From Amphiscolops sp. MND2022 (lineage: Eukaryota), in the NCBI GenBank assembly GCA_964187785.1, contig OZ076409.1, positions 75,642,001-75,706,000 of the forward strand: a stretch of 64,000 bases of DNA, given 5' to 3'. The notes under the pieces were generated by a model, which saw only the letters and a list, made by a program, of their open reading frames with translations, did no database searches and was not told the origin of the DNA. Positions 1 through 64,000 of this stretch are shown piece after piece (within the stretch, counting starts at the first letter, position 1; every line of letters begins with the position of its first letter). The position numbers and the translations under genes are program-made.

Positions 1-1121
1 AAACAGATTTCCGCTATCTATCACCGTTACGGACTTGGCCCCCCAGCCTAAGCGCTAAGTGACCGGAAATGTCACTTTTTGAGCCCAAAGGGTCGGTCCC
101 AGCCAGGGAACGTTAGGTAACTTATTGTAGTACTCATTGAGATGAGTTGGGGGACATAGTTTCAGTCACCCCCCGTTACCCCTTAAGACCGGAAATGACC
201 GTTATGTGAGTAAATTTGCCGTTTTTGTCCTATTTGAAGGGCATTTAGATGCGGAAGGAGTGGTAATAGGTGCTTGGACACTATATGAGGTAAGGGAGGA
301 TATGAGGCGAGCATTCGGAAATAACCGTTATGTTGACCCCAAAGTCCCCCTGGTACCGTAAACGACCGGAAATGGTCAAATTTTCTGTTTATAGGGTACA
401 AATGTTTGGTATTTTGTAGATAAAAGTATCTATTAGGTGTTTCGACGGTCTGCAGTAGTGAACATAGTCATGAAACCTTGTGGGGGGTAACGGTATATAG
501 CACCGGAAGTCCAAACCGTTGGAGACAGGATAGGTTTTTTGGTTTTAAAATGTCTTTCGGCGTACTTTTGTCGACTATTAAGGACTACTTTTAAAAATTA
601 AAGTTTTTCCATATAGTTTTAGAGACTCCGAAACCTCAACCAACATAACCGTTACCTCATGATAGCCTTTCAAGTTGGCCTGGTGTCAACTTGGAAGGGC
701 TATCCTTCAAAAATCGTCAATCAAGTGTGTTTTTGGGTATGTTTGTATCATTTTAGAATCAAATAGAAGCTTCAAGAAAAGTTTGCCAACGACAAAAACT
801 ATGTCGTGATGATTCCGTTATTAGAATAATAGTTAGCAAATTGTTGAGAAAATTGATTTTTTCCATATAAAATGTGTCCTAATTGCCAGGAAACCTATTT
901 AACTAACAAATGGTATTGATTGGAATGTATGTAACAGATTTATAAAAGTTCAAATTGATTATTACCTTTCAATATGGAAGCTGAAACGTAATATTTTAGT
1001 TTAATTAACGTCAACGCCACACACTTTACATCAACGCGCACCGTCTGTGGGCATGCCGAGGCATGCCCTTCGACGACGTATGGCAAATCCCTTCTAACGA
1101 CGCCCGTACATCCCGGGCTAG
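1..1121 (+). mobile_element. 3' part of a long (~2 kb family) unit
   Basis: Bases 1-560 align by eye to 44955-45520; GATAGCCTTTCAAGTTG hairpin at 661-704; 3' hairpin at 1049-1068. Confidence 0.85.
661..704. repeat. Internal palindrome GATAGCCTTTCAAGTTG-GCCTGGTGT-CAACTTGGAAGGGCTATC of the long unit family (example)
   Basis: Also at ~45635-45678 and ~62276-62319, with a variant at ~3467-3510. Confidence 0.8.
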
Positions 1122-2083
1122 GTGCCGGGATTTCTATTCGATAAGGAATTCTGCGCGTGTGGGTAGGGCCCCTGGCGCGCTCCTGTGTTTTGGGTTTTCC
1201 TACTCTAAATTCACACATCGGTTATCTCGGATCTCGAAAACTAGCCACACGATTTGGCTGAAATTTGGCACACGTACCCCCCTCGGCACGGTGAAGATGA
1301 TTCCCTACTGACGTTTTGCCCGCTAAACATTTTTTGTTGACCAAAATAACGGTTTTTGGTGGAAAATTTTTGATTTTTTTTAAATTTCATCTTATATCTC
1401 GCCAAGGGTTTACGCTAGCGCTTCAAAACCTTGCTGACGAAAGTTTGCAAACTGTCTCAGGAATGCGGTGTGAAATTTTCAGCTCAATCGGACAAAAACT
1501 CGGGGAGATATTGCGTTTTTCCGGAGCGGGGGGGTTTCATTTTTCTAACGGTCCAGCTTATCTTTGCCATTTTTTCGAAAATGCACTCGCCTAAAGGCCT
1601 CCCCTGGCCGGTTTTACTCCCAAAAAAACCATTTGGCCCTAAATACGGAGTTTCAGCGTTCTAGCATTCTCGGGCGAAAAGTTGTGGGACTTAGAAAATT
1701 TCAAAAATTTTCAAAAATTTTTTTTTTGTTGTTTGGGCCCCCAAAGTGGGGGAAAGGACCCCCCAACCATTAATTTGAGTGAATGCATGTGCAAAGCCCT
1801 TGTATAGAGGAGAAAAATGCCGTTTAGAACGTCTTTTTATCTTTACTCAACGTTGACTTATGACGTTTTGAAATTGACCGTTAGATATGGAAAATTGATG
1901 TTTTGAGTATTTATCTCATCTGAAAGCCATTGAGATACAACATGTTTTGCTCAAAACGGGTTTCATTGCAGTTTCGCTGTCTATTAACACCCTTTGGTGA
2001 CTTTTGACATATTTTTGCTTTTATATAAAACCAATTTTTTGTGCATTTTTTCTTTTTTTTTAATCTAATATCTTGAAACAGTT

Positions 2084-2127
2084 GAGTACATTCCATCTCC
2101 CTTCCCGGGGGAGATGAGAATGTACTC
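2084..2127. repeat. Internal ~44-bp imperfect palindrome GAGTACATT(C/T)CATCTCCC-loop-GGGAGATGAGAATGTACTC, present ~270 bp before the 3' end of nearly all 1.3-kb units (example)
   Basis: Recurs at e.g. 4778-4820, 9153-9195, 39978-40020 and the equivalent position of other units, with compensatory changes. Confidence 0.85.
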
Positions 2128-2395
2128 GCTAAAAGCCAAGAACTACGGCCAATACCTTCCCGAGCTACGCACTACAAATATTGCATATGCATGCAGACCT
2201 TTTGATATATTTTTATCTTTGTAGATTGACTGGAAAAACCGAAAACTCTGTCCTGATTATACAAAGTTTCCTCACAACGACACATGTTTACGTCAACGCC
2301 CCATAGTTCTTATCAACGCCCCCCGTCCGTGGGCATGCCGTGGCATGCCCTTCGACGACGTGCACCAAAATATATTCGAGCGCGGTAGCCGCTAG

Positions 2396-3791
2396 GTGGT
2401 CGGGGATTTTTTTTACTCGTATATGGCGTTTGCGAGGCTTTGGGGAGGGCCCCGTGCCGAGCCTGTACCGAAATTTACCACATACCAGAAGTGGTATAAA
2501 TAAGCGAGATCTCGAAAACTAACCGTTAGAATTCCCTGAATTTTTGCATGTGGCTCCTAATCAATGAGTAATGAAAAAGTGCAGGAGTGACGGTGGCTGA
2601 AAAAGTTGTCTTTGTTGCACTTTTTGCGCAATTTTTGTCGGATTGTTGCGTTTTTTATGTCATTTTCCACTTTGGAGGCAAAAAAGTCATAGATGCTTCG
2701 TTCCTAGCGTATCACGTGTGGAGCACGAAAAGTTGCAGCATCTTCAATTACGTATGCTGTGAAAACTTGGTTGCCCTCGGCTTACCCCCCACAGAGATAG
2801 AGAAGTCCTTCCGGTTATTTTTGACCCCTAAATTTGGGAAATTGCTAATTTTCGTAATAAAGCCGTATATGTAGCGTGTGCACACCCTGCTGAAGATTTG
2901 TTAGGCATTTTGAGATAGATCCGATGACATGCGTTCAGTTCACCCCAATCACCCCCTGGACCGGAAATAAACTTTTTTTGTGTCCTTTCAGACCGGAAGT
3001 CTCCAATTTCAACGGTAAGGAGTCCTTGTACGAGCAACTAGCAGGGCATCAAAATTGAAGTACAATGTGGGGTGAGCTTAGTTACCACGTGTTGCCCAGT
3101 CATGGGTACCGCCATGACCGGAAATGGGGTCAAAACCCCCATATTGGTCGGTTTTTTTAACAATTTGACTAGTGTTTGGTCCACATGCAAGTCGGGTAAT
3201 GCAATTGAACCAGAGTGAGCATAAACTGCACGTTCACTACGTAGCCGTAAATGACACTGACAGATACCGGAAGTAACCCCCTGTGACCGGAAGTGATCCA
3301 TTTTGACCGGAAATGGTCCAAAAAGTAGCGTAAATGCAGTTTTTCACTGCTTTTTACGGTCAAGTAATTACTTTTTTTTCAATTTGAAAGCTATTTTCTA
3401 CGCAAAAAGCTAACGTCGTTGCATGTTTTGCTGAAGATCTGAAAAGTGATCACCTTTATCACCCCCGATAGCCTTTCAAGTTGACCTTGGGTCAATCTTG
3501 AAGGCTATCTGTACTTAAAACGAAAAATAAGATAATTGGTTTTCTCCATTACATTAATACTTTCCCTTCAAGTGATATTGTTCTGCAAAGACGTTTGTTC
3601 AACTGAATGATCTGAAAATTGGTCAGAGGTGCCACCCAGACCAAGATTATTTGCGATTGAAGTAAACTGAGAAAGAAGGTAGTATTAAACGACATCACAC
3701 AAACTTACCAACGCCCACCGTCTGTGGGCATGCCGAGGCATGCCCTTCGACGACGTATGCCCAATATACGCGTTAACGCGGTAGCAGCTAG
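2396..3791 (+). mobile_element. Divergent 1396-bp non-autonomous unit
   Basis: Standard termini, unique interior with ACCGGAAGT/AT motifs and a GATAGCCTT...AAGGCTATC hairpin (~3467-3510). Confidence 0.82.
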
Positions 3792-5095
3792 GTGGCCACG
3801 ACCATGGTTTCTTGCGTATCTTGTCGAATCCTTTGTCGTTGCCGGCCGGGGAGGGACCCGTTTGCCGGCGTGTGTAGTGTGGGGCCCCCATACCCAAAAA
3901 GTGGTATTTTTTTCAGAGATCTCAAAATCGGCCCATCAGAATTGCCTGAAATTTGGCATGAGGCTCCCAATTGGGGAAAAAATTAGAAGTGTAGGAGGCG
4001 ACTTGTTCGGGTAAATATTGTATGTTGACTTTTGGCCAAAATAGTGTTCCCCCCCAACATGGGCAAAATCACATGAGTTGTAAAAATATGATCACAACTT
4101 TTGAACCTTTGGATTTAGGGGTACGGTCGTGGACCACATTAAGCAAGAGCTTTGGTGAGCGGGTAGGATTGATGGGTTTTGATCCCAGTACCTTCAACCA
4201 CTTTTGAGAAATTAACGTTTCAAACAAACATCCGGGAGGTATCTGTTGCCCCTGAAGGCAGGTTTTTCGCCATTTTCAATGTGAAGGAGTGGGTTTAGCG
4301 TAACGTGTGTGGGGTGCTTTTTTGTTGCCCGTGTGCGGAGCGTTGTATAGAGGTGCTGGTTGTTGAAATTGGAAAAGCTGCTAAAAAGTTATACCTATAC
4401 CCCCCCTACTGTCTCTGCCATTCAATTTTTTTTTCAACTTCAGGCCTCCCAAAGGTGAGAAACTTCCACACAACTAGTATTGCAAGTGAATGCATGTGGA
4501 AAGTACTCGGATAGACGAGAAAAATGAGCTATAGAACGACTCTGTAGCTTAACCTGACGTTGACTTATGACATTTTGAGTGTGAGCTTGCTACGAGAGAA
4601 AAAAATTCAAAATTGAAAATCGAAGCTAAGTCTCATCCAAAACTCATCGAAATACGTTCAATCCATACCAAAGCGGTCAAACTCCAGCTATATAGTGCAG
4701 CAACACTATTTAAGACCATTTGACACAATTTTACTAGTTTTGACATTGTATTATTCATCCGAGAGCACAAAACAGTTGGGTACATTCCATCTCCCTTTCG
4801 GGGGAGATGAGAATGTACCCGCTAAATGACACGCACCATGGCCTAATTTTTACCTTTATGCGACGTTTTCTAGGCTTTCGCGCAAGCCCACTAATATTTA
4901 GACTGGTTTCTTTCTCTTTCACTCCAAACATTCCGTCCGTACTAACCACCTTACACACCACCAGCAGCTCAACGACACATCTGTAACGTCAACGCCACAT
5001 ACTCGCATCAACGCCCACCGTCCGTGGGCATGCCGAGGCATGCCCTTCGACGATGTATGCCCGTTGTCACAACAGGGCGCCCCTACATTCTCTAG
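3792..5095 (+). mobile_element. 1304-bp unit (GTGGCCACGACC head family), near-identical to 8166-9468
   Basis: The two copies match over their full length by eye. The right half is shared with GTGCCGGGAT-head units such as 36455-37732. Confidence 0.87.
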
Positions 5096-8000
5096 GTGGT
5101 CAGTGCTGTTGCGTTCATTTTTTTCCGGCCGTGGGGGAGGGCCCCTCTGAGGCCGGTCATTTTTCAGGTAACAGCTTTCTTATACAAAAAAGCGGGAAAA
5201 AACCTCAGTGCTCAAATCCCAACCGTCAGATTGAGCTGAAATTTGGCATGTAGCTAGTGCATTGCAAATGATTAGGATGGGTTATAACGCTATGTTTGGC
5301 AAAATTGGTTTCGTTGCATTTTTTTTGTCATATAGGGCCAAAAATGGCCTTTTTTGCGTATTTTTTGCTTGACTAGCTAATAACTCGCGTTGGGTTGGTA
5401 CTAGCGATACGGGTGTGGGGTATGGAATTGTAAGAATACCAAATACCTTGCTGATCACGTTATTTGATTTCCGCCCACATCACTCCCCACGCCGGAAATG
5501 CCCAATTTGTCAATTCCGGTCGCAATTTTTGACTTTTTTGGATGGAGTCAAAACCCATTTCCGGTGTGAAGGAGTGGGTTGAGCGCTTCGACCCCAATAT
5601 ACTAAAAGTAGGTTTAGACAAAGTCCTATTAGGAAGAAAGTAATGTAAGCCCGTATCTATCACCCCCTCACCGGAAATAGGGGTCACGCCTCCTTTTTCT
5701 GTGTTGCAAAAGTGACATGTGCACATTTGTCCAACTCCGAAGCCCCGGAGCACTGTGGGACCCTTATACTTTCTAAACACCTATCCCACACGCTACCGGA
5801 AGTGACCGGAAGTTTCACCGGAAATGACATCCTTGGACCGGAAATGGTCAAAAAAGGACTTTTTCAATAAAAAATAGACACTTTTGGTGCAATTTTTAGG
5901 CAAAAAGCATAATTCGTGATAAGCTTGTTGCAGTTGAAAGGGCCATTGTTCAGCAAGAATGCATACAGCATTACGTAGCACATCAAGTGGTTGATAATTT
6001 TTCGTCCATAATATCCATAGGACCGGAAATGGCCATTTTTGAATCGGAAATTTCTTCAGCTTGATTTTTAACAAGTTTTTCCACAATATTAGTGTAGGAA
6101 TTGCTCGTCGGATGCTTTAGGTCTATTTTAAAACTAGCTGACTGCTTCTTAGAAATGTATTTCAGAAATCCCAACCAATTCCAGATTACCGGAAATGGGA
6201 GTAATTGCCTCCTTTATGACCTTTGAATGATAAATTGTTAAAATCCGCAAATTATTTTATTCCACAACTGTTGCTCAGGTTATATCTAAGCAATAACATC
6301 TGCTTGTTTTGAAGTGCTGTATTGTGGGAGATACAAATATTGCTTTTCAATAGTAATACATACGTGATATTCGCCGCAATAAAGATTTTTCAAATCAACC
6401 ATTTTGAAGTCCTACTGGCGTTCCGCACACCCGAAATAATTTAAGTTTCTAGTTTCGATTTTCAGGCTTCCGCGACTATTGAGTTGAGATGATAGTTTTC
6501 ACGTTCTCTGCAAAACGGGCATTTCATTGTGTATGTGACATTTATTGGGTTGTTTCACATGGTAATTCAAAACTAATTGATCATACAATTTAGAACAATT
6601 GAAAATTTTCAATTGAACAATAAATGTTTTATTAATTTCTCTTTCGTTAAAGATACTCTTTTGTGGCCATTAGAACAGGTTGAATTGGTTGAATAAGTAA
6701 CCAGTGCGATACATCGTTTAATACATAGCGTTTGACATCGTTTTCTTGCGAACAAAGACAAGCATGATTTGTTGGAAGTTTTTACCATATCGCTTCAAAT
6801 CGGTCGTGACAAACAATGAATTTCTCGTTTTAATTGCTACTTCGAAAGCAGCCTGAAAACGCAAATCGATCTATTGAGTTATGGAGATGCAACTAAGCAT
6901 TTCAAGTCTGGGTTTCAATTTAATTCTATCACTCCGGACTATTTTTATGTCGCAAAAGTGATAAAGGGTGTTAGCAAGGTTAAAAACATCGAACAATTTT
7001 AAAAATAATGCCTCCGGAAAGGGAAGAAAAATGAGTTTTCCTGTCAAAACAATGATAACCACGTACGAAACATCAAGTATTTGTATTTTTCAATAGTCCA
7101 AAACATGAATGAAGTTTTTAAATATCCAAGAGTTTCTAATCAAGCATGCGTTTCAAATGTCTCACAGGGCAGCATCGTTTTCAAAAAACAGCGCTTTCAA
7201 TGTGGTTTCATACCAGCAAAACGAACGCAGGCACAACCACTTTCTCAAAATTCTTGCACAACAACCAATTTCTTTGAAAATCCTATTTGATTCCTCAAGG
7301 TATATGGTGAGAACCCTGTTGGGTTCCAAAGTTGATGTGCTGTTTTCTTGGGTTTGCGAGATAAGTTACAACGGAAATCTGAAAGCAGGTCGTCTCAATA
7401 AAATACCTGTTGCTCTTTAAACGATTGGACTTAAGTAGTCGAAATTTATTCTCAGACACTTTCGATCAGAGAATGTTTGAGTCCTAACGTTCGAATCAGG
7501 TTGGTTTCAGGTGGCTCGAAGTGCCAGCTGAACCAACCTTTCAAATAAAGAAAAACCCCACACCTTCTTCATGCCACGCTACCCCGTATAGCGTTTCAAC
7601 TTGACAGAAATTGGAACGTTTGATTTTGGCGTCGCTTGGGATTGACACACCAGTGTTGATACTAAATTTGGCAAAGAGAAATCGCAGAAATAATTGTTTC
7701 TGTTTTTCCCTTTGATTTAGTGTGTCGAGCGTACAAAGCAGTTTGGGAAACTAACTTGCATTTCCACTGAACGAAAAGCAAAAGTAGTAACAATGAAAAC
7801 TTCCGGAATAAATTTAATCAGGTTTCCGTATTTGTGAGATCAGCTGCCACTCAGTTATCAGTTACATCTTTCAAATTTTTAAGAACAACTAATCTAACTT
7901 TGCTCGACTCTCTTGGATAAGGCAACAATAGTTTACTAATCTGTACTCGTGGAAAAAGTCAACTGCCGGGTCAAAAACAATCTGTATGTAACTTTTCTCT

Positions 8001-8165
8001 CGTGCAAAGTTATTTTTTACCCCCTCTGACTCAACTATAGCATGTACGTAATGAAACCAATAACACCTTCAACTGTTAATCAACGCCCACCGTCCGTAGG
8101 CATGCCGAGGCATGCCTTTCGACGACGCGCGCCAAAAACAATATAACGGCGCCACCCGCTTCTGG
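5096..8165 (+). mobile_element. 3070-bp unit carrying ~1.9 kb of sequence unique in this window (~6200-8070)
   Basis: Starts with GTG after CTAG (5095) and ends with the hairpin module and CTGG (8162-8165). The interior is not repeated elsewhere in the window. Confidence 0.8.
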
Positions 8166-43700: not shown

Positions 43701-44102
43701 ATTAGTACACTTTGATGTCATTTGAGTATATTTTTCTTCTATATAATAACTGTTTTTATGTATTTATTCCAATTTATCTCATCTTTTAACATCAAGCAGT
43801 TGAGTACATTTCATCTCCCTTTCGGGGGAGATGAGAATGTACTCGCTAAAAACCTAATGCTATGGCGCCAATGTTTGGATGGGAAGTTTTCTATGCTTTG
43901 AAAAAAGTTATTTTTAATTACTTGATTTTTTAAAACAATAATTAACATGAAGTACATTACTTGCTCCTACTACTACCACCATACATCTCTAACGTCAACG
44001 CCCCCTGCTTGCATCAACGCCCCATCGTCCGTGGGCATGCCGAGGCATGCCCTTCGACGACGTATGCCAAATGCCCAGTGCCACGCAGTCTTTTCCCGCT
44101 AG

Positions 44103-49000: not shown

Positions 49001-49966
49001 AGTTTAACTGTTCTAACTTCCTTCAGTTTTAGTTCACAGATGAAGATTCGCCGTAGCGATACGTAACGTTTTTTATCTAAATCGAATTTGCGGAGACTCA
49101 ATCTGCCTATCGTTCGCACGGTCGTTATTGAGCATAAATTACGCTCATTGAAAAAGTGCGTGATCAGCGTCGTTCAATTTTTACGTGTAATTATCATAGG
49201 TGCCCATATGTTAAATTGTAAGAATAGAGGTAATAGGTTTTCAAAATCCGGCTCATCAGAAGTTAGCTTGCGGCGTTATGCTGAAGGCCCTTCTGATGAT
49301 GCTATGTCCCCCCTTTTTTAGTGGGTAACCTATGCCCAAATTTTTTTCCAGCAATTTTTCCCAGCATTTTTGTTTTTTGTGAGTCTTAACCAAAATAATT
49401 TCTGATACATATTTTTGATTAAATATTACTTCTTAAAGTAGCTTTTCATTGAATGGTTTTAATACAATCAGAATTGTTTTTCCTTGTAAAGTTTTTTTGT
49501 AATATGAGTTTGTAACTGATGTACATGAGAATGAATTCCACCAATAAAAGACTCGAAACCTCTTGTACTGTATGTTTGATGTATGTTTATTTTATACTGA
49601 GAGTCAAGTAGGACATTACGTCTCTCGATCAAATCATAGATTTTCTTCGCTCTTTTATTTCGTTAATTGCTATTTTCCAAGTGGAACCGCTTCACACATT
49701 TGATTTTGCAAAGAAACATTGAACAAAGGTATTGTTTTAGCATATTTAGAATCAAAATTGAATTTTTCACGTTTGAAAGATTGTAAGATTTACAAGTTCT
49801 CTGATTTTATCCATCGTCTAAAACTTGATTGACTCGATTTTGGTAATTGTTCCAGTGGCGCTTCAACTATTAATTCGATTTCATTAGCCAATTCGGTTGA
49901 TCCGTATCAAATTTTAGTCCCAATGAGATACTGAAATGTTCAATTTCGTTTCATATTTTCAGGGAT

Positions 49967-52900: not shown

Positions 52901-55900
52901 GTGACTGTGAAGACTTCCAAATCAATAACTCCAACTAATCCAAAACTTCAATTTGATCATGCTGATTCTAGAGTACGCGTAAATGAATTGGCCGCATTGT
53001 TGTCTAAAGAACCTGCTACATTTTTTCTGACACTCACTTGTAACCAGAAATATCACTTTGGGGTAGCACCAATTTTTGAAGCTATTGAAAATCGATTCAA
53101 CAGAAATAATAAACAAGAGTACGAGAGAGCAGTTCAAGCTGAGATGGTGCTACTAACAAGAGCTTGGTATAGATCAGCTGAAGCTTTAATGGAATGGATC
53201 GAAAAATCTCCCGACCAACCACTTGGAACTGTCACCAAAATTTGGTATCGCTATGAGTTCCAGTCTACCAAAGGGAACTTACCGCACATTCATTGCGTCA
53301 TATGGACAAAAGAAAGCAAAGCTGAATTACAACACAAGGTTTCATGCTCTGGATCATCAGCTTTATTCGAATTGAAAAAAATAGCAGCTGAAACAAATGT
53401 AATTAATAGTGATCAAGTTTTCGATTTGTGGACTCAACTGATGACAATCCAAACTCACTCCTGCGAAAAGGCAAACTATCGCTGTCACAAAATTGTCAAA
53501 GACGACGGGTCAACAATATGCAGAGTTCCCCGTTACCCGCATTCAAACCGATATTCCTGGAGAAAAGTCCCATCAAGCCATTCGGAAGAAGCATTGCAAG
53601 TTCTTCATTACCTTGACTTGGCCACACCCTCGAAGTCTCATGACGATACCTTCGAAGTTTCAGAGAGTCTTCAAGGAGGCAAATTCGAATACCCAGCTTC
53701 AAGTGACGAGCACCTTTCCCCTTTTAACCCACTTGTTTTCATCATTACGATGTCTTCGCAAAACCTTCAATTGTGTGACGAATACTTATCTGCAAGGTAT
53801 ATTGCAAAATATGCAGCAGGGATCGAAGAACGAGCTGATGCACGTGTTGATCCGGTTTCCTTCAATGAAATTAGAATTCACACTAAAGGAATTAATAATT
53901 CGAAAATTTCCAGTTGCCGTATCAAAGAAAAAAGTACAGATAGAAAAACAATTGTTCAGATAATTCCTCTCGTTGAAACTGTTTGGTGGTTATTGAGTTT
54001 CAAATATGTTCACAGTTCTGTTTCCTTCGTTCATTTATCGACTCTTGAAAAGTCAGAACGAACGTCTTTCATCACACCCAGAAAAAATACAAACCCAACC
54101 CAGCCGTTACCTTTACATGTTACAAAAAGTTTCACTTTACCACTGTCGCGCCAATTCACCCAATCACAGTTGTTGGTTTTAAAAGATTCTATGACAAGTG
54201 AGCATTCTAACTGCAAAATGACAGTTTTTAGCGGTAGGCCACCAGCGCTTTTGTGTGTTGATAACCCTCAACTGTATTTCACTTGGTTCAACAGAGTTAA
54301 TATTCGGCATCCCCAGGATACATTGAATCATGATGTTAACAATTCAAAATGGATAGACCTTTTCGGACGTGCTGTACACTTGAGACGTTGCTATCTTGAT
54401 GACTTTTCCACTTATGTCAACAATCTCAGAAGAGAGGGACATATCAACTTGTACCGATTCGATGAAGATACATCGATTTTGTTTCTACAAAACGACTGTT
54501 TGGGATTGAAAACAATAGACGATTCTCCAGTTCAAGTTGTGACATCAAACATTGTGCCAAATAATCGTCGAAAATTTTTGGTGCACTTTGTTCTATCTAA
54601 CGGGAAGTTTGAGACAGAACCAGATCTATTCAATCATCCTAGCATGATGGAGGTTTTCATCAACTGCAAGTTACTGCCATCAAAAAGTTCTTATACACAA
54701 CAAGATGCCTGTGATCTAGTGAAATTTTACGTTTTGTCGGAACTCAAATACCTTCCTGGGGCAAGCAGATCGTTCGATCGTCATTTGTTATGTTGTTACG
54801 ACTTGATGACCAATCTTGTTCTTCATAACCAGATTCATTCCGAAGCTTTGCCCTCAACTCTTCATTCAGAAATAACCGAAAACGCTGAAATTGATTACAT
54901 CCTCCACAGTAACGAAAAACGAGAGCGAAGTGTTCAAGGTTGCCTCTTAAATCCAGCTTTGATGCCATTGCAACCACACAAAGATTCTTTCGTCGCAGCC
55001 ACCCGCAGTAACCCGTTTGTGTACAGTTTTCCGTTTCCTCGAGCTCCCGGACAGTCGGACGAATCAAACACTTTTCAACAACGTGTGTTCAACGGGTGCA
55101 TTCAGAAATTGACTAACTTTATTGAAACAAAAGACGGTTTCGTAAAACATCAATTGTTTTTGGGGCGTCCGGGAAGCGGCAAAACACTCATCTGCACAAT
55201 GATATATCTGGAAGCTGTGGCGAAAGGTCTCAATTGTGCAGTAACTTGTCTAAGTGGAGAGCGAGCCCAACAACTCGGTGGCGAACATGTCCACAAACTA
55301 TTCAAGTTCAGAGTAAACAAAATACAGAATCCCGAAATAATGGCTTCCCAGAGTTTGAAAAGTCTTCTCAAGGATGTCACAAGGTTCACTGAGCTGGAAC
55401 GCCTTGACGTACTTTTTATTGATGAAGTGGGCCAGCTGAATTCTGAATTGATGATAGCTATGGAAATTGTTCTACAATCTGTACGAGAAAACAAACTGCC
55501 AATGGGAGGAATCTTCACAATCCTAACAGGAGATCCGAAGCAATTGCGCCCTCCACAAGGATCATTGACATGGTTGTCACCGAAGATGCTGACAAATTTT
55601 GATTTCCACTACTTTAAACACTATGTTCGAGCAAAGCCTGGATTGTTGCGACAGATACTGACTAAATTAGATGAACTTGATATCAGCCCAATCGAAGCAT
55701 CAAATATTGCAAAGGAAATTGTAGCCAATTGTAATATCCATTCAACTTGGGACAATGTTGGTGACAACTTTGACATGCGTGTTTTCAGCACACGAGCCGC
55801 TGAAAAACAGGCTGTTACACATCATTTTGAAAAAATTCTGGCTGACCAAAGTTGTGTAAATGTTGTGTTAACTGCTAATGATGAAGTGAGTTCTACTGGT

Positions 55901-56950
55901 GCATCAATTTGGCGTCCGGCAGGTGACATTGAACAAAAAATCATCGATTCCACATCCATCACTCCCCGACAACTGCTCTTGTATAAGAAAGCGCTTCTCA
56001 GATTTACAGCCAACCTCCCCAACATTCAGGCTAGGCAAGGACAATTGTGCCTAATTTTGGAAATACCAACCGAAACAGCATCTTCTCTGGACGTTTGGAT
56101 TGCACCACCAGGTTGCCGGACCGTCACAAATTTCGACGAAAATAACCTCATTACATCTGGTTGGCGCAAAGTCTCTATTTCAAAAGTGTTTACACCTATA
56201 ATGACTAACAACAACAAATTCCTAAGGAGATACTCTTTCCCTCTCAAGAACTATGTGGCATCCACTATTCACAAATGCATTGGTGACACGTTCCCAAAGA
56301 TTGTTACCAAAGTTTCACTTACGGACAAACATTACAAAATTTGGGAAAAAGAGCAACTTCTTGTGTTGTTGAGTAGAGTCAGTAAGCTCGACGACATAAC
56401 GTTCGTAGGTGAAGAACACGAAATAGAATTAACTTTAACTGCTGCCATTCAGCAAAAGTCCTGCTGGGGAACTTTCATCAATAACCTTCTGGAAAAATTG
56501 GCCTGTACTCCCTCTGACCTGACGCCGCCAACACTCAACCTCCTTTCTTCAAATATTGTACCTTGGAACATTGTCTTACCCGAAGACAATGTAGGCTTTG
56601 TGTATCTTCTGGTAAGCACGAAGATTCCGAATGTTTATTTCATTGGAGAGGCTCTGGAAATTCGGCGAGAATTGAAAGTTATCAACTCTGGAAATGGCGC
56701 ATCCGAAACACGCCCAATCGAACGAAGGCCATGGGCAATCTTAGCATTTGCAACAGGTTTCAACACCGAAGATTCTTCCAGCAACAATACGCAAAGAAAA
56801 TCGCTTGTATCGAAGATGAGAACGCAATTTACTTCCCTTGGATTAAACTTCACCACCGTGGAATTGTTTGAAACGTTCAAAGAATCAACGAGAACATATG
56901 CTGACGAACGTGATCTAAATTTGAGAGTTATCCAGTGTGGCAGTGTTTAG
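49967..56950 (+). CDS. Helitron-type RepHel transposase (2327 aa): Cys-rich N-terminus, HUH/Y2 replication initiator, Pif1-family SF1B helicase, C-terminal GIY-YIG-like domain
   Basis: Uninterrupted ORF. Rep motif I FFLTLTCN (aa ~1019, nt 53021); motif II YRYEFQSTKGNLPHIHCVIW with HUH = HIH (aa 1107-1109, nt 53285); motif III YIAKY (aa 1278-1282, nt 53798). Helicase motifs: Walker A GRPGSGKT (nt 55163), Walker B FIDEVGQL, GDPKQLRP, HYVRA, FPLKNYVASTIHKCIGDT, VLLSRV. C-terminal GFVYLLVS...YFIG...NSGNGA..T...RRPW from nt 56594. The ATG lies just after a pyrimidine-rich AG (49961-49962), suggesting a 5'UTR intron. Confidence 0.95.
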   Translation: MPPRRNRSVRNKCSRCRVFIPQSSTLCASCASSSAEVTHDNEDSSSVSIPNEDNPRNIVYPPRCTLCGLHEQSQGQLCCFCCPVTLPVCTDAECQKCRRITCSSLNSISMADVKQTAFGCRLPGEASDFARLCNECTHYATHGFRSPWRNIWPCVVLDFLSGKYNGIADGKPFHKVLPTSILEQYQHLLQFNTDEKETVFADLTHKLLEFKSLKQNLNIDGVQKAHNKYSFPEVRCPFGCTEFVGDTGLIPLQYFLLTLDKNFAFNGMKWKRRLRCVRPDWLTPYNHNDAFNVRPHIVVDEKQGLCLATCKFHNGGSHQFFVHPPTNPTGRLPSKNADRLGPATVSYNCYKPSKPNFSTHTFSMGVAKGNFSGISSTTIACKRRWDIAFGEDDVVRESLCSNKRQDIKPLLQKLVHKGELSQNLFDSITSIEGLPDDQTILECLKTATSVPLELALALKKIQEEGLNVNYFPVFSHPFTKYGCDPPDTVVNQSMPKYLWIYAVMFALSCNFHLSLLKFISTDSAFKNVFHFMLINDGRLADKKKRELAEFLQRYSQDPSYDMVDSLEQLLTNISFVKHFNVTDRESVESILKSLTDDKIVTFITNARRRDDGYLPDRVVTTNGSTSYELRSIAVTEGGNVKTLVRHGNEYNCWWIYSTAHETPSKMGLEDLVEMNKFHSSWLSCHYEIIGSVDMQREKYQYLEYLGGQGRFICDDHHVPLTVARKNTPTLCSFSTSCQRKPAWNCPSENCLSSVCRTHFAQHQLSNERFFVKCPTSNCDVVPPHSAECCDDDVVVSEPESDYDEFSFTNFTTDTGHVENMTNCCATDSGDMPSVVDSVDTSIPAHILLNTDCHVLERKNYRIDRSKTSSRFLQNIVARSSGNSIPLIYPDAALFPTHYYHEQTDNTITGAVPAPLFCDKQSKHFLFASIEDHKRSAVLNPNLLQSTDVRSIQTSFDTVLNKRLTFSDTRLVLNRGFQEVTVKTSKSITPTNPKLQFDHADSRVRVNELAALLSKEPATFFLTLTCNQKYHFGVAPIFEAIENRFNRNNKQEYERAVQAEMVLLTRAWYRSAEALMEWIEKSPDQPLGTVTKIWYRYEFQSTKGNLPHIHCVIWTKESKAELQHKVSCSGSSALFELKKIAAETNVINSDQVFDLWTQLMTIQTHSCEKANYRCHKIVKDDGSTICRVPRYPHSNRYSWRKVPSSHSEEALQVLHYLDLATPSKSHDDTFEVSESLQGGKFEYPASSDEHLSPFNPLVFIITMSSQNLQLCDEYLSARYIAKYAAGIEERADARVDPVSFNEIRIHTKGINNSKISSCRIKEKSTDRKTIVQIIPLVETVWWLLSFKYVHSSVSFVHLSTLEKSERTSFITPRKNTNPTQPLPLHVTKSFTLPLSRQFTQSQLLVLKDSMTSEHSNCKMTVFSGRPPALLCVDNPQLYFTWFNRVNIRHPQDTLNHDVNNSKWIDLFGRAVHLRRCYLDDFSTYVNNLRREGHINLYRFDEDTSILFLQNDCLGLKTIDDSPVQVVTSNIVPNNRRKFLVHFVLSNGKFETEPDLFNHPSMMEVFINCKLLPSKSSYTQQDACDLVKFYVLSELKYLPGASRSFDRHLLCCYDLMTNLVLHNQIHSEALPSTLHSEITENAEIDYILHSNEKRERSVQGCLLNPALMPLQPHKDSFVAATRSNPFVYSFPFPRAPGQSDESNTFQQRVFNGCIQKLTNFIETKDGFVKHQLFLGRPGSGKTLICTMIYLEAVAKGLNCAVTCLSGERAQQLGGEHVHKLFKFRVNKIQNPEIMASQSLKSLLKDVTRFTELERLDVLFIDEVGQLNSELMIAMEIVLQSVRENKLPMGGIFTILTGDPKQLRPPQGSLTWLSPKMLTNFDFHYFKHYVRAKPGLLRQILTKLDELDISPIEASNIAKEIVANCNIHSTWDNVGDNFDMRVFSTRAAEKQAVTHHFEKILADQSCVNVVLTANDEVSSTGASIWRPAGDIEQKIIDSTSITPRQLLLYKKALLRFTANLPNIQARQGQLCLILEIPTETASSLDVWIAPPGCRTVTNFDENNLITSGWRKVSISKVFTPIMTNNNKFLRRYSFPLKNYVASTIHKCIGDTFPKIVTKVSLTDKHYKIWEKEQLLVLLSRVSKLDDITFVGEEHEIELTLTAAIQQKSCWGTFINNLLEKLACTPSDLTPPTLNLLSSNIVPWNIVLPEDNVGFVYLLVSTKIPNVYFIGEALEIRRELKVINSGNGASETRPIERRPWAILAFATGFNTEDSSSNNTQRKSLVSKMRTQFTSLGLNFTTVELFETFKESTRTYADERDLNLRVIQCGSV

Positions 56951-57019
56951 TTCATTTGGGTTTACAAATATTACACTGTAGAAGTCTCTGAGAATGGACG
57001 ATAGATGAAGCATGTGAGG

Positions 57020-57050
57020 TTGCCCCGGCCACGCAGTGAGCCGAGGGCAA
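57020..57050. other. GC-rich stem-loop ~70 bp after the RepHel stop codon
   Basis: TTGCCC-CGGC-CAC-GCA-GTG-A-GCCG-A-GGGCAA; the arms are complementary. Confidence 0.6.
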
Positions 57051-57510
57051 GCTTTATTCAAACTATAGATGAACATCCTTTTTTGTTGAAAAGTTCTTTG
57101 ATTATACTTTGCCTTTGCTCATTTTTTCAACGTTCCTTTGTAAATATATACTGATAAAATTGTCACCCGTTGATAATATTACCAGTTGACACTGAAGTTG
57201 ACACCAGTCAAGAAAAAAAATATTTATCTGACTGGAACAAAAAAAGACAAAAAAAACAAGATGGCAAGATTGTTGAAACAGTTCAATTCTTCAACTTCGA
57301 TAATCTTTTCCTTAACATATTTTTACCATCACGTGGAGGGAAATAGAAAAACATTTCTACAGTTAATTAGTTCGAAAGAGAAAAATTAGACAGTATTTAG
57401 ACGCAGTAGTGATGTTGTACATCGAAAGAAATGAAAATGTGTCGAGAAACATAACTTTATTGTGTTTTTAGATAGCTTTGTCTTCAATCGAGACTGAAAC
57501 AAGATTCAAA

Positions 57511-58901
57511 ATGCCCATCATTAATAAAGATTTGTCGGCAGATGAGGCAGCCACCAGAACAATCAGTAAATTAACAACGTGTGAACTCGATGAAGTGATG
57601 GAATCTAATGCAACGGATCGGAAGTACATGATTTGTACATTGCTTTACGCCAAAAAATGTGTGAAATCAGTATCGTATTTTAAACTAACGAATGGACAAA
57701 AGCAAAAACAGGAGGCTACATTTAACCGTTTTGTCCTTCTGGGAGTGATCGGAAAAGAGAAAGTAATGGCAATATTTACCTACACCCAACTAGAAAGCGC
57801 GGAGTTGTTGCGTTACTGTTCTGCATTACAACCAGGAAATGCGTGCGCCTTAATACGCCCTAAATTCGATAACAAGTATATGGGATCATCATCCACTACC
57901 CCAATCATACTAACTTCTGAGCCACTTGTGCCTCTGAACATCAAGAATTACCCTGATGTCAGCTGTCCAAGAATTGTATCATCACCGGACTTTCAACATT
58001 TCTACATGAAAACGAAAGATTTGAAGCTCGATAATATAGATGCCATTGGAAACGTGTGCAATGGGACCTTCTGCGATGGTCAACCGAAGGGCGACTGTCC
58101 TTGTTTAGAGGTCGACAACCGGAAAAGCAGCTGGATCATTACTGCGGATGTGAAATGCAGTGGGTTGTATCACTCATCAAAAATACGATCAAAACGATTG
58201 ATAACGGTATTCGCTCCCAAATGTAAGTCGGCGGACCCTAACAAAAGAGAATTTGATGTCCTTGATTTGGGCGATTGTATTGAAAACTGTGTTGAAGCAG
58301 TAAATGCCAAGAATGGATGGGAAATTTTCGGTTGGGTGAAACCAAACGAATCTGCTCTAGAGTTTACAAACTATGAATGCGACCTACACATTATACATCT
58401 TCAACCTATCGAAATTACAGATGTAGAGTCAGGTAAACCTAAAATTCAAATATTTATTTTTCCAGTTTTTACTTTCTTTTTTCGCTAAAGTTCTAATTAA
58501 TTTTCGACCAAAATATGTCTAGCAGAATCAAAATATAAATTTTAACAGAATCTCAAACACAACGTTTAGTGTTATTAACAATTGTTTTCGCAAAAGACAT
58601 GAACATTAATTTCACCTTGAACTATTATTTTACAACTTGAGACTAAAACTTACAGTCTTTCTTTTTTTCCCAACGTTATTTTTAAGATGACCGATAATTG
58701 ACAAATGATAAATATACTTCAGATGCATACAAAGCCTTGCAGTATAAGTTGCCCGAAACATCTGCCCCAGAAGTCGAAATGCCCGTCATAGCAACTACAT
58801 CAGGAACAGCTTCGGTTCCAGCAACAGCTCCAGCAACAGCTCCAGAAACAGCTCCAGCAACAGCTCCACCAGATGAACAAGCAGCTTCGGTTGAAAGATG
58901 A
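57511..58901 (+). CDS. Second gene of the autonomous element; predicted two coding exons (57511-58432, 58723-58901), ~366 aa, function unknown, CxGxxCDGQ-x4-CxC motif and Ala/Thr/Pro-rich tail
   Basis: ORF open from 57472, after acceptor-like TTTTTAG (57471), with first ATG at 57511. Donor TCAG|GTAAAC at 58433 and acceptor TACTTCAG| at 58722 are both phase 1 and join in frame (...ITDVES-D-AYKALQYKLPE...). The unspliced read-through (IQIFIFPVFTFFFR) looks intronic. AATAAA at ~59133. Confidence 0.75.
58818..58868 (+). repeat. 12-bp coding minisatellite (CCAGCAACAGCT) x~4 encoding PATA/PETA
   Basis: Read directly in exon 2 of ORF2. Confidence 0.85.
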
Positions 58902-59344
58902 AAATCGCATTATCAACTACGAAAAATGCAGAAATCAAGAGAAGTGACAATGAGCAAAAAACATTGATAGATTTAAAAATCTCGAAACATTTTGATTCAA
59001 TAATGTTATAATGTGATCATAAAAAGATTGCAGAAAAAATAATCTTGAAACCGGTAAAAGATTATAAATATCGTATTGTTATGTTCCTTTAGTTCATATT
59101 CTTGAAATAATGTTAATTTGTTATTTTCAAGAAATAAAAATTCACTTTTTCGTTCCCACAAGAAACTTGAATAGAGTGTTCATAGAAAAAATACGTATGT
59201 TCATAGACTAGTCAATATTTTCAATACAAATATCTGAACTAGTCAAAATACTAATCTTTTCTTTGCTTTCACTCTGGTATGACATTTGCTAAACGTTTGG
59301 TCCTTACAACATACACATGACTAACGTCAACGCCACATACTGTT

Positions 59345-59434
59345 ACCAACGCCCACCGTCCGTAGGCATGCCGAGGCATGCCTTTCGACGACGTATGCCA
59401 AATACCATAAAACCGACGCGCACTCTCCCGCTAG
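59345..59434 (+). terminator. Helitron 3' terminal signal (GC-rich hairpin plus CTAG) of the autonomous element; an equivalent copy ends every unit
   Basis: AGGCATGCC-GA-GGCATGCCT at 59364-59383, flanked by CGTC...GACG; CTAG at 59431-59434. A hairpin followed by CTRR is the established Helitron 3' structure (rolling-circle termination, not transcriptional). Confidence 0.85.
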
Positions 59435-62400
59435 GTGCCGGGATTTCTATTCGATAAAGTATGTGGCGCGTGTGGGTAGGGTCCCTGGCGCGCTCTTGGG
59501 TATGGTGTTCACCAGCTAGGAAATAGGGGTCGATTTTTCGGGATCTCGTAAACTAGCCACACGATTTGGCTGAAATTTGGCACACGTATTCCCCTCGGCA
59601 CGGTGAAGATGATTTCCTACTGACGTTTTTCCCGCAAAATTTTTTTTGTTGTCCAAAATAACGGTTTTTGGGGTAAAATTTTGAATTTTTTTTAAATTTT
59701 ATCTTATATCTCGCCACCGGTTTAGGCTAGCGCTTCAAAACCCTGCTAAAGAAAGCTTGCAAACTGTCTCAGGAATGCGGTGTGAAATTTTCAGCTCAAT
59801 CGGACTTAAACTCGGGGAGATATAGCGTTTTTCCGGAGCGGGGGGGTTTCATTTTTCTAACGGTCCAGCTTATCTTAGCCATTTTTTCGAAAATGTACTC
59901 GCCTAAAGACCTCCCCTGGCCGGTTTTATTCCCAGCAAAACCATTTGGCCCTAAATACGGAGTTTCAGCGTTCCAGCATTCCCGGGCGAAAAGTTGTGGG
60001 ACTTAGAAAAATTCAAAAATTTTCAAAAAAATTTTTTTCCGTTTTCCGCCCTCCCCCCCTAGGGGAAAAGACCCCCCAACCAGTAATTTGAGTGAATTCA
60101 TGTGGAAAGGCCATGTTTAGACGAAAAAATTGCCGTTTAGAACGTCTTTATATCTCAACCTGACATTGACTTATGAAGCTTTAAAGGTGATGTTTGGACG
60201 TGTGAAGCATGTAAAAAAAGGAATTTTTTGATTTTATTTCATCAGAAAGTCATTGAATCACACGCTGTGAAGCCCAGAGCGTGGTTTCTAATAGTTTGGT
60301 ATCGTTTAAACGCATTTTGGTGTCTTTTTACTCTGTTTAAAAAACTTTTCTCCTGAAAATTAATAAATTTTGATTACTTTTCTTACTTTCCATTAATTTT
60401 TTTTTCTTATATTTTTACTTGAAACAGTTGAGTACATTCCATCTCCGTTCCCGGGGGAGATGAGAATGTACTCGCAAAAAGCCGCGAACTACGGCCCATA
60501 CCTTCCCGAGATACGCAGTATAAAGATAACATAATGGTCCAGACATTTTAATGGAGTTGTATCTTGGTAATATGTCTGGATTTGCAGAAAAATCAGCACG
60601 TGCTTTTTTATACCAAGTTGCTCACAACGACATTTATTTTATATCAACGCCCCCATATTTATCAACGCCCCCCGTCCGTGGGCATGCCGAGGCATGCCCT
60701 TCGACGACGTATACCAAAATATGTTCGAGCGCGTTAGCCTAGGTGCGGGGGGGTAACCCCAACTTTTTTCTTGGAGGAATCGGGTAGGGTCCTGATTCCG
60801 AGCTTAGTGCCGCCAGCTATCGTTAAAAACCCATACCTTTTAAACCCGATCTCGGGAACTAACCACGCCCCTTCTTTAATTTTTTGGCCCCCACTCACTT
60901 TTTGAGAGTAGATCGCCCCCCACTGGGTTCGATGTTGGGCAAAAATGGAGGTCATGGGTAACGGGGACCGTTAAGGGGTAACTCAGGGGGTAAAATTTTT
61001 TTTTGCGTCATATCTTTTCCCCCCGTGGATTTAGCGCTTCCGGTCAGCAGACAAAACCTCATGTACGTGATACGGGGCCTCCGTAGGTCCAAACAAAATT
61101 TTTCTATCATGCACCGTTACGGACTTGCCCCCCCCGGCCCAACCGTTATTTTGCCGGAAATTGCACTTTTTGACCGGGAAGGAGTCGTCTGAGCACGGAG
61201 TCGTTTGGTAATGTTTTGTAGTGCATCTGGAGACGTGTTGGGGGACATGTAGTTTGCCGGCCCCAGTTTACCCCCCGGACGGGAAATGACCGTTATGTGA
61301 AGTTTAAAAATGCCCCCCTTCAATTTTCCCCGTAATTTCCGGTGTGAAGGAGTGGGAGTAGGGTGTCGGGTGCCATATATCAAAAGTAGGTTTAGACAAG
61401 GACCAACCGGAAACATGTGGTTTCGGACCCCCTGACCCAACCCGTTAGCCGCTATTACGGTGATCGCCTCCTTTTTTTGCTGTCAAAACCGGAAAACGGG
61501 CATTGAGGGGTAAATATCTCGTGAACGCGTGGAGCAATCGTGTCCATCACTACTACAAGGTTTCATACCCATGATATGGTGCCTTCAGGGGGGCAAACAG
61601 ATTACCGCTATCTATCACCGTTACCGACTTGGCCCCCCAGCCTAACCGCTATGTGACCGGAAATTGCACTTTTTGAGCCCAAAGGGTCGATCCTAGCCGG
61701 GCAACGTTAGGTAACTTATTGTAGTACTCATTGAGACGAGTTGGGGGATCTAGTTTCAGTCACCCCCCGTTACCCCTTGAGACCGGAAATGACCGTTATG
61801 TGAGTAGAATTGCAATTTTTTTACCTTTTGAAGGGCATTTAGGTGCGGAAGGAATGGTAATAGGTGCTTGGACACTATATGATGTAATGGAGGTCGTGAG
61901 GAGAGCATTCGGAAGTAACCGTTACGTTGACCCCAAAGTCCCCCTGGTACCGTTAACAACCGGAAATGGCCAAATTTTGTGTTTATAGGGTACAAATGTT
62001 TGGTATTTTATGGATAAAAGTACCTGGAAGGTGTTTTAAAGGCCTCCAGAAGTGAACATAGTCATGAAACTTTGTGGGGGGTAACGGTATATAGCACCGG
62101 AAGTCCAAACCGTTAGTTACAGAATAGGTTTTTTGGTTTCAAAATGTCTTTAGGCGTAGTTTTGTGGGTTGAATCGTCATAATATCAACTAATACGGACT
62201 TTTTTCGGAAATAAAATTTTTTCACATTAGTTTCAGGGACCTCCAATGTTTCAGTCAACATAACCGTTACATTTTGATAGCCTTTCAAGTTGGCCTGGTG
62301 TCAACTTGGAAGGGCTATCCGTCTAAAATCGTTAATCAAGAGTGTTTTTGGGTAGGTATATGTTGCATTAGTACCAATTAGAGCTTCATCAACAGTTTGC

Positions 62401-64000
62401 CAACGGCAAAAACGATGTCGTGATAATTCCGTTATAAGAATATTAATTAACAAATTGTTTCCAAAGTTGATTTTTTCCATTCGAAATGTGTCCTAATGCC
62501 ACCAAATTGAATAAAATAATAAATGGTATTGACTAAACCTAAATAACATTGAAAAAGAAGCTCAACATTTTTAATAGGTCTCATTATGGAAGCTGAAACC
62601 TCACGTTTTAACTTAATTAACGTCAACGCCACATACTTTACATCAACGCCCACCGTCTGTGGGCATGCCGAGGCATGCCCTTCGACGACGTATACCAATT
62701 ACATATATATCCACACCCACCCGCGGTAGCAGCTAGGTGGCCGTGTCTTTTCGACGTGCTTTTGCATTGAGGAGTGGGTAGGGCCCCGCGACGACCTAGA
62801 AAAATTGGATGCTCACCGAAACGTGCAGAATTCTACGAGATCTCATAGTTTGAGCCATACGATTTTGCTGAAATTTGGCATGTGGCCTGGAATTGGTGAG
62901 TAGGTAAAACGTGTAGGAGGTGATTTTTCCCAAATTCCACTGTGAGACGAGATATGGGCAAATAACGGTCCCAAAAATGGCAAAAATGCACTTTTTTCAA
63001 CTTTGTCAGCCCATATCTCGTTCCCATGTGCCCGGAGCGGGACGCGTTAAGCTGATTATAAACTCTAGGGTGTTGAGGCTGTACGGGGAAGTCAGGCCCG
63101 TTCCGATCGGACTTGTAGTCTTGGAGAAATAACGGTATTTTTGGGGAACCTTTTCTAACGGTCCAGCTTATCTTTGCCATTTTTTCGAAAATGTACTCGC
63201 CTAAAGGCCTCCCCCTGGCCGAATTTACTCCCAGCAAAACCATTTGGCCCTAAATACGGAGTTTCAGCGTTCCAGCATTCCCGGGCGAAAAGTTGTGGGA
63301 CTTGGAAAATTTTCAAAAATTTTCAAAAAATTTTTTTTTCGTTTTCCGGGCCCCCAATGAAGGGGAAACGACCCCCAACCAGTATTTTGAGTGAATTCAT
63401 GTGGAAAGCCCATGTTTGGAGGAGAAAAATGCCGTTTAGCACATCTTTTTATCTTGACTCAACGTTGACTTATGACGTTTTGAATGTGATGTAAGGATGT
63501 AGGAGGCATGTGATAAGTTGATGTTTTGAGTCTTTATCTCATATGAAAGCGGTTGAGATGCAAGCTGTCCTGCTCAAAACGTCTTTCGTGGTAATTTTCC
63601 AGTGCACCAATACCCTTTGGTGTCATATAAACATACTTTTTGTCGATATATTAACAATTTTAATGTATTTATTCCAATTTTTATTATCTTATAACTCAAA
63701 ACAGTTGAGTACATTTCATCTCCCTTTCGGGGGAGATGAGAATGTACTCGCTAAAGACCTAGCGCCATGACCAAAAGTTTGAAACCCACGTTTTTTTATC
63801 TTCTTACAGACTTGTTTTTGTATTTTTTCGGAATTTTTTAAAAATTAAAATACTTGAAATATATTACTTGACTTTACTACTACAACCCACCTCCAACGAC
63901 AACGCCCCCCTGCTTGCATCAACGCCCGCCGTCCGTAGGCATGCCGAGGCATGCCTTTCGACGACGTATGCCAAATACCCAATGCCACGCTGTCATTATC
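59435..64000 (+). mobile_element. Continuation of the array: three non-autonomous units (59435-60742, 60743-62736, 62737 to just past the window end)
   Basis: Same termini. The last unit ends ...GTCATTATC at the window edge, matching the tail at 42781-42820, so it is ~5 nt short of its CTAG. Confidence 0.92.
60743..62736 (+). mobile_element. Long non-autonomous unit, 1994 bp, diverged sibling of 44103-46096
   Basis: Same head and collinear interior with many substitutions; standard 3' hairpin and CTAG. Confidence 0.88.

Follow-up and report, generated by a model that had tools for sequence, protein, structure and literature searches.

What builds a stretch of chromosome in which whole transposable elements follow one another in a single orientation? 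The question is raised by a 64,000-bp stretch of the Amphiscolops sp. MND2022 genome (1.07-Gb assembly; contig OZ076409.1, here called C1, positions 75,642,001-75,706,000), which we refer to as the window. From end to end (1..64000, positive strand) the window is a portion of a same-strand array of Helitron-like units joined at CTRG|GTG. An earlier inspection of the letters alone (the sequence-only reading) had described 39 complete units from at least seven to eight head families, with one helper gene for a fused Rep, helicase and GIY-YIG nuclease (RepHel-GIY-YIG) embedded among them, and had proposed that Rep could insert or excise a whole unit at any array junction. Our analysis identifies the single unit as the thing that is duplicated, landing between resident units. 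The explanation that best covers the whole, and one that we consider likely, is that the Rep protein treats any resident left end as both an origin and an integration site.

The array and its extent

The positive strand of the window holds 37 CTAG|GTG junctions and 1 CTGG|GTG junction, all 38 preceded by the conserved tail hairpin region. Four such heptamers occur on the negative strand, and shuffled windows contained 5.4 on average and 10 at most (100 shuffles). BLAST returned no opposite-strand match between window units, and the exact, same-orientation junctions of the sequence-only reading thus stand. Its count of 39 units also holds, but only 37 are complete, the first (1-1121) and the last (62737-64000) being cut by the window edges; their genomic lengths are 1,972 and 1,269 bp. 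At 90% identity the 39 units form 19 clusters, i.e., several families, as claimed, but more than were named. Most units are 1.26-1.40 kb long; others measure 2.0 kb, 3.1 kb and, in one case, 12,050 bp. The single CTGG|GTG junction (8162..8168, positive strand) marks the 3' end of a 3,070-bp unit. A CTGG end is a family trait: in 244 kb of the array, 127 of 143 junctions carried CTAG, 15 carried CTGG, and 1 carried CTTG.

The array is confirmed as a real feature, far larger than the window. It spans approximately 70.5-76.5 Mb of C1, i.e., up to ~6 Mb. Among twenty 10-kb samples drawn from 69.6-77.2 Mb, junctions were present in all 15 located between 70.8 and 76.4 Mb, with 71/71 on the positive strand, and none was found in the 5 samples outside. 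A Rep query yielded at least 131 matches in the whole genome (128 of 473 candidates scored). Between 70.5 and 76.5 Mb of C1 there were at least 35, all on the positive strand and with 34-100% identity, and 28 of these 35 lie in open frames of at least 2,200 amino acids. The RepHel in the window, which the sequence-only reading described as the helper of the array, is therefore one of many, from many families, in the same array. Further clusters occur on C1, C2, C3, and elsewhere in the genome. The exact 25-nt tail hairpin has 4,266 genomic copies, 4,187 of which are followed by CTRG|GTG within 22-52 nt. CTAG plus A, C, or T follows another 26 and CTTG|GTG follows 2; the remaining 51 lie outside this tally.

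Several local features of the arrays were recorded. At 76.005 Mb of C1 (L123:5437-10000), inside the large array, a unit end CTAG|TT is followed by non-unit DNA carrying open reading frames (ORFs) that resemble ORF1 and the endonuclease of long interspersed nuclear elements; the array is therefore interrupted. The sole opposite-orientation neighbors in our listings lie at C1:23,975,000-24,018,500, where a positive-strand unit stands beside a negative-strand array, and Rep matches occur on both strands in C2 102-103.9 Mb and C3 2.4-3.9 Mb. Regional family domains were seen at C1 75,747,292-75,794,900 and at L143-L144. One comprises 14-15 consecutive units of the CTGG-ending group (1.0 and 4.9 kb), and the other is a run of a hairpin-less tail group surrounding its own autonomous copy.

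Units are duplicated singly

Copying was analyzed in 244 contiguous kb comprising 142 units (1 further junction was missed by the filter). These fall into 42 clusters at 90% identity and 122 at 99%. One-kilobase segments centered on units gave 40 pairs with at least 99% identity among 115, as opposed to 2 pairs among 105 for segments centered on junctions and 0-1 when the halves were shuffled. Blocks of high identity begin and end at junctions. Adjacent units were at least 99% alike in 2 of 141 cases, compared to 0.54 in permutations (P = 0.10), so that identical neighbors are not enriched. The 34 non-adjacent pairs at this level had 1 of 68 neighbor slots in common, as permutations give.

The largest unit of the window is an autonomous element of 12,050 bp, GTG...CTAG (47385..59434, positive strand), with three more copies in the genome. 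The four 12-kb copies are 99.7-100% identical over the compared end stretches and their ends are exact, while the neighbors differ on both sides. Exact joints also link unrelated families, the same junction being found where tails are unrelated and Reps are 36-79% identical. Taken together, the unit-centered comparison, the neighbor slots, and the 12-kb copies identify the single unit as what is duplicated, with each copy landing between residents; the proposal of one-at-a-time entry at existing junctions is thereby borne out.

The target site

To define the target, we examined tail hairpins followed by a base other than G. Of 26 such ends, 3 were internal variants and 23 were true 3' ends; 5 of the latter close multi-unit arrays, 8 close solo copies with a head, and 10 had no head in the fetched DNA. 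The next two bases were AT in 14 cases, TT in 8, and AA in 1, placing T at +2 in 22 of 23 ends (G at +1 was excluded by the design of the search). Left host flanks, available in 11 cases, ended in CTAG (4), CTTG (4), CTCG (2), or GTCC (1), and thus 10/11 conform to CT[ATC]G, with the proviso that two of the 11 heads were located with a pattern favoring such flanks. Solo copies found by head homology likewise begin with GTG. The host side of dispersed loci is not telomeric, and the DNA bordering small arrays is clean and unique at either end.

At the empty paralogous site of one solo copy (L090), a single CTAG is joined directly to the right flank. Insertion therefore involved neither duplication nor loss, and the left tetranucleotide belongs to the host. 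Of three pattern searches for empty sites, this was the one that succeeded; the other two gave nothing. For an insertion nested in a RepHel gene, 6/6 best-matching homologs carry CTGG at the site. Left host flanks, the T at +2, the empty site, and the nested-site homologs define the short target as CT[ATC/G]G^NT. The array junction fits this motif and so mimics the target, a resemblance that supports the sequence-only reading. The short motif is not the whole signal, however, since ~950 internal copies go unused: in the 244 kb, CT[AGT]G^NT occurs within units at 348 plus-strand and 609 minus-strand sites. One unit, truncated to 314 bp, stops at an internal CTTG.

The L090 solo (5470-5512, 7489-7530, minus strand; empty paralog at C8:22064568) lies in what appears by eye to be a tRNA-like repeat; ARAGORN did not report a tRNA at this locus. 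The same 5'-truncated unit, followed by the same downstream flank, recurs at three loci (L088, L099, and L105) that lie on different contigs and are probably one insertion within a repeated segment. At C10 39.23-39.24 Mb (L102:1-7990), the Rep region of a gene from another family is interrupted by an autonomous copy in the same orientation, accompanied by a repeated C-terminal fragment.

Hairpins at the two ends

Nearly every unit has a head hairpin around +35 to +56 (47416..47443 in the autonomous unit, positive strand), with the core GGGNNGGGNCC and a family-specific stem. When junctions were picked by the tail alone, the core lay 35-56 nt downstream in 250 of 259. Over 17 arm types, cognate arms fold at -8.1 kcal/mol versus -5.3 kcal/mol for swapped arms. 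The conserved core and covarying stem mark this hairpin as a candidate Rep-binding signal.

The tail hairpin (59364..59383, positive strand) has an 8-bp stem and a CGAG loop, and in 127 of 142 units the distance from its end to the 3' terminus is 40-58 nt. There are 12 tail types, and several families lack the hairpin. One family with 2-kb units supplies 6 of the 23 true 3' ends, yet only ~45 of the 4,266 copies. It is the last unit in 3 small arrays, which are all the arrays where it is present at an end.

A model of array growth

Starting from the termini, the short target, the lack of duplication, the unit-wise copying, and the use of junctions, all of which the sequences show, we infer the following enzymatic steps. 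Rep would bind the head hairpin, which lies 35-56 nt into a unit, and nick the top strand at CTRG^GTG. PIF1 would unwind the unit, with the next junction acting as terminator, and the strand would close to a circle, recreating CTRG|GTG followed by the head hairpin at its junction. Rep would then join the circle into any genomic site resembling its own origin. The CTAG|GTG at the 3' end of the autonomous unit (59431..59437, positive strand) exemplifies the presumed site of nicking, circle joining, and integration. The best sites would be the left ends of residents after CTRG, so that newcomers of any family would slot in between them with matching orientation, every insertion adding a further target. 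Weak host sites, which offer the tetranucleotide alone, would rarely be used and would give rise to solo copies, and a solo with CTAG on its left could seed a new array. A moderate preference of families for their own kind would produce regional domains, whereas gene conversion or recombination would yield mosaic units without affecting their order. Related reactions have been described: Helraiser is reported to cleave its own end-to-end junction precisely (PMC5876387), and for TrwC and the Rep of adeno-associated virus (AAV), integration at a copy of the enzyme's own origin is reported (PMC6049929). The placement of the 2-kb family and the CTAG left flanks fit growth at the head of a founder unit.

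A number of observations weigh against this model. The evidence for it comes from assembled sequence. Mosaicism is evident in the largest unit family (site incompatibility of 0.12 near and 0.45 far, P < 0.001), and five two-unit blocks match at 96% or more. Like head groups adjoin above chance (52 versus 38.5 in the first 128 units, P = 0.002), a clustering for which local hopping accounts equally well. A predicted polarity is missing, as young units are no closer to the next head than to the previous one (P = 0.35-0.98 at four thresholds). Swapping the arms does not weaken folding in 4 of the 17 arm types, and 9 of the 259 heads lack the core yet are located in arrays. CTAG is the left flank of 2/2 small arrays in which it is known, versus 2/9 solos, a difference with P = 0.11. 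One insertion nested inside a RepHel gene lies outside the big array. Finally, the sequence-only reading had looked to dispersed solo copies as a check on its proposal. By copy number they are rare, 4,187 of 4,266 being in arrays, but this 98% share is driven by a few huge arrays, and by locus solos and fragments exceed arrays 18 to 5 among the 23 true 3' ends.

Alternative explanations

Conservative shuffling of cassettes, with Rep acting mainly as a site-specific recombinase that cuts units out at junctions and reinserts them elsewhere and with copy number raised by other means, corresponds to the integron-like view of the sequence-only reading. It fares best among the alternatives, but we regard it as unlikely. 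The identical site at both ends of a unit and the random order are what it would produce, and HUH enzymes are reported to be capable of site-specific recombination (PMC6049929). Four near-identical 12-kb copies and many near-identical small units indicate copying instead. Recombination between any two junctions would furthermore be expected to transfer blocks of several units, yet such blocks do not exceed chance frequency, and the units hold no cargo genes on which selection could act.

Even less likely, in our judgment, is that the short motif alone is read, with insertion into a permissive region or near the donor and purging of other copies. The ~950 internal sites left unused on both strands, set against the 143-144 junctions used in 244 kb, are hard to reconcile with such a scheme. 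So is the location of 71/71 junctions of 15 samples on a single strand, and Helraiser is described as showing no local hopping (PMC4778049). The scheme would explain the dispersed solos at host CT[ATC]G sites, the clustering of like with like, the regional family domains, and the one nested insertion.

We give slightly less credence again to satellite-like growth, in which rolling-circle concatemers serve as a seed that unequal crossing-over and gene conversion amplify and scramble. Tandem Helitron arrays are reported from plants and bats (PMC5876387), and the mosaic units, the few adjacent twins, and the five similar two-unit blocks are in keeping with this origin. However, identity blocks are bounded by junctions, junction-centered segments match no more than shuffled halves do, identical neighbors are not enriched, and unrelated families interleave with exact joints. 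Recombination does occur inside units. The difference in identity between unit-centered and junction-centered segments rules against block duplication as the builder of the array. Unequal crossing-over, which the sequence-only reading had singled out as a rival, is disfavored as the builder. Transport of blocks as the source of small arrays is weakly disfavored by two junction searches, one junction being unique genome-wide and the second having one near match.

An assembly artefact, in which reads of repeat families are stitched at common tails of ~100 nt that could draw false joins, is very improbable given 122 distinct unit types at 99% identity among 142, identical joining of families without the common tail, small arrays with clean unique flanks on both sides, and regional structure across megabases.

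Transposase and companion protein

ORF1 of the autonomous unit (49967..56950, positive strand) encodes a 2,327-aa RepHel-GIY-YIG transposase with Pfam matches to Helitron_like_N (33.8 bits) and PIF1 (35.1 bits), both above the cut-off. The Rep core (53021..53812, positive strand) contains motif I, FFLTLTCNQ (aa 1019-1027), the HUH motif, EFQ...PHIH (aa 1097-1109), and YIAKY (aa 1278-1282), which holds two tyrosines. The PIF1-like helicase core (55151..55552, positive strand) includes Walker A (aa 1733-1740) and Walker B (aa 1819-1822). The predicted Rep model (predicted local distance difference test [pLDDT] of 84) has one strong structural match, Helraiser 7LCC, with a Z score of 14.8, root mean square deviation of 4.0, 303 aligned residues, and 18% identity; the next match scores 5.7. 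Foldseek gave E = 1.6e-8 for the same pair. A sequence search of the PDB with ORF1 recovered PIF1 helicases only and not Helraiser. No Pfam match to a tyrosine-recombinase integrase was found in ORF1 or ORF2, the scan covering the autonomous unit of the window and the sampled stretches.

The C-terminal GIY-YIG-like nuclease domain (56594..56776, positive strand) is degenerate in the window copy (E = 0.025, below the cut-off). It is clear in a sister family (E = 3e-9) and present in 7/7 outside homologs, 5 of them above the cut-off. Some other intact-looking RepHel ORFs (L139-L140 and L145-L146) also have a degenerate or missing domain. Since it is degenerate even in the recently copied unit of the window, the domain may be dispensable or supplied in trans. 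The embedded helper of the sequence-only reading is thus upheld in its Helitron_like_N and PIF1 parts, and its nuclease part is degenerate.

ORF2 (57478..58488, positive strand) encodes 336 aa, and its homologs travel with the clade, as seen in metagenome loci. Pfam had no match for ORF2 or four homologs. The best fold matches of the model (mean pLDDT of 40) are the oligonucleotide-binding (OB) folds of RPA70 and Teb1, with Z scores of 7-7.7, which is below the level that is safe on its own; its neighbors in a protein language model are POT1, CTC1, and MEIOB. ORF2 is a probable RPA70-like OB-fold single-strand DNA-binding protein.

Non-autonomous units

Upstream of the autonomous unit lie non-autonomous units of 1.26-1.40, 2.0, and 3.1 kb (1122..47384, positive strand). 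The 1.3-kb units have the first ~800 bp and the tail in common with autonomous units. No cargo genes were detected, the longest ATG-initiated ORF per family having a median length of 71 aa versus 69 aa in shuffled sequences, with a maximum of 136 aa. For lack of cargo genes, the likening of the locus to an integron cassette array is retained as an analogy only.

Of the 142 units, 119 contain a conserved internal non-coding motif (47945..48245, positive strand), which 29 of the 42 families have. It is ~200-300 bp long and is kept even between units whose Reps are ~50% identical. Rfam gave no match in the window. The motif is possibly a second-strand origin or a promoter.

Clade placement and relatives

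A library search returned 655 relatives, the named ones being from Perkinsus olseni (an alveolate) and Styela clava (a tunicate). Relatives of the transposase clade also occur in many aquatic metagenomes. In FastTree phylogenies, 35 family sequences were separated, with a support of 1.0, from 19 HLE1-type sequences and from 13 HLE2-type sequences, the latter representing two lineages only, versus four published subgroups. Members were chosen for their similarity to different queries and labeled by Pfam content, and the first tree kept 19/166 family, 18/120 HLE1-type, and 11/120 HLE2-type rows, those without motifs or too alike being dropped. The trees suggest that the Amphiscolops elements are probably a separate RepHel clade. 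They have no 5' TC and no A|T target, which the sequence-only reading had given as traits of classical Helitrons, and thus depart from that kind.

The left boundaries of two metagenome copies of a distant relative are CTGG|GT and CTAG|GT. One of the left flanks (L169:100-200, L171:1200-1417) resembles RepHel coding DNA, and the other resembles a unit tail. A further metagenome locus (L193:190-225) has a head-like hairpin with the same loop, and relatives P0004 and P0058 have an OTU-like domain. No clear multi-unit array was seen in 40 metagenome loci, where contigs are mostly no longer than one unit (viral contigs fell outside the scan). The Amphiscolops genome also has ordinary HLE1-type and HLE2-type Helitrons, dispersed and on both strands (L165, L166, and L167). 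In the literature searched in full text, neither the clade nor mixed-family, junction-targeted arrays are described; the unclassified clusters in the HELIANO supplements may include the clade, and Repbase was outside the search.

Implications

On balance, we lean toward an unnamed third major eukaryotic rolling-circle lineage (RepHel-GIY-YIG plus an OB protein) that acts as an HUH site-specific integrase. Its origin would be its attachment site, each insertion would make a new one, and dozens of families (Reps down to 35% identical) would share one site standard, building communal, self-extending arrays of thousands of units. If so, these elements would provide natural, precise, duplication-free, and repeatable integration of cargo, with sizes reaching at least 15 kb. 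They would also represent a new way in which repeat blocks of megabase size arise, and would show that transposons can spare host genes by creating the sites that they use. In this eukaryotic chromosome, several megabases appear to have been built unit by unit at the elements' own junctions, with many coexisting families and intact transposases. The choice of target by a Helitron Rep is directly testable here, with CTRG^GTG, a covarying hairpin, and four near-identical intact copies at hand. A precise, iterable HUH integrase could also help stack DNA at one locus. The case from sequence for insertion at own junctions is strong, and these Helitron-like elements are probably a new clade.

Comparison with known systems

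The accepted view is that Helitrons target scattered AT or TT dinucleotides. The Amphiscolops elements belong with the Helitron-like (RepHel) group by their two-tyrosine HUH Rep, PIF1 helicase, and lack of target-site duplication. Like HLE1 (Helraiser/Helibat), they have a Y2 Rep fused to PIF1, with a Rep fold matching 7LCC, a 3' CTRR-type end with an upstream hairpin, an RPA-like partner gene, and non-autonomous deletion derivatives. Unlike HLE1, their 5' end is GTG, with TC in 0/142 units (as delimited by the GTG rule), and the target is CT[ATC]G^NT rather than A^T, 0/11 left flanks ending in A. They also have a C-terminal GIY-YIG domain, a conserved 5' hairpin, and mixed-family megabase arrays. 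Their tail hairpin lies 40-58 nt from the end, as opposed to the 10-12 nt given for HLE1 in PMC5148889, and tandem arrays of known Helitrons are attributed to rolling-circle read-through in PMC5876387 and PMC5148889.

With HLE2 (Helentron/Helitron2, Fusarium FoHeli) the elements share a large RepHel with an accessory nuclease and hairpins at both ends. Occasional self-insertion has also been reported for FoHeli, but there it is rare and imprecise. One Sphagnum HLE2 family is described as carrying GIY-YIG (PMC11417382). DUF6570, given as an HLE2 marker in the same source, had no match in ORF1 (E ≤ 1) or in 7 homologs (E ≤ 0.1). The Amphiscolops elements have no AP endonuclease and no T|T target, 0/11 left flanks ending in T. 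Short terminal or subterminal inverted repeats of the HLE2 type were not found in 40 families, the longest exact inverse match between head and tail averaging 6.1 for cognate and 6.1 for non-cognate pairs.

Integrons are arrays of whole, same-orientation, heterogeneous cassettes, each with one structured site. Their cassettes bear genes, and they rely on a tyrosine-recombinase integrase with one attI and a promoter. The likeness of the Amphiscolops arrays is therefore one of geometry and not of content. They differ in their HUH enzyme, the absence of cargo genes, the presence of many enzymes inside the array, and entry apparently at any junction.

Among other HUH systems, TrwC and AAV Rep also combine an HUH nuclease with a helicase and use a copy of their own origin as the place where DNA is integrated (PMC6049929), and IS91 shows orientation-specific insertion beside a tetranucleotide target (PMC10288648). 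These systems, from plasmids, viruses, or bacteria, have single targets, and growing arrays are not mentioned for them in the portions of the literature searched. Replitrons are described as having a Y1 Rep without a helicase (PMC10288648), in contrast to the two tyrosines and PIF1 of Amphiscolops. The telomeric Helitrons reported from Paramecium lie outside HLE1 and HLE2, are site-specific with an absolute orientation bias, and form many families per compartment, as in Amphiscolops; their CCAA end is also present in the target repeat (10.1101/2025.11.06.686955). According to that preprint, however, they insert into host telomere repeats, which border every copy, whereas the Amphiscolops elements use their own junction, with no spacer.

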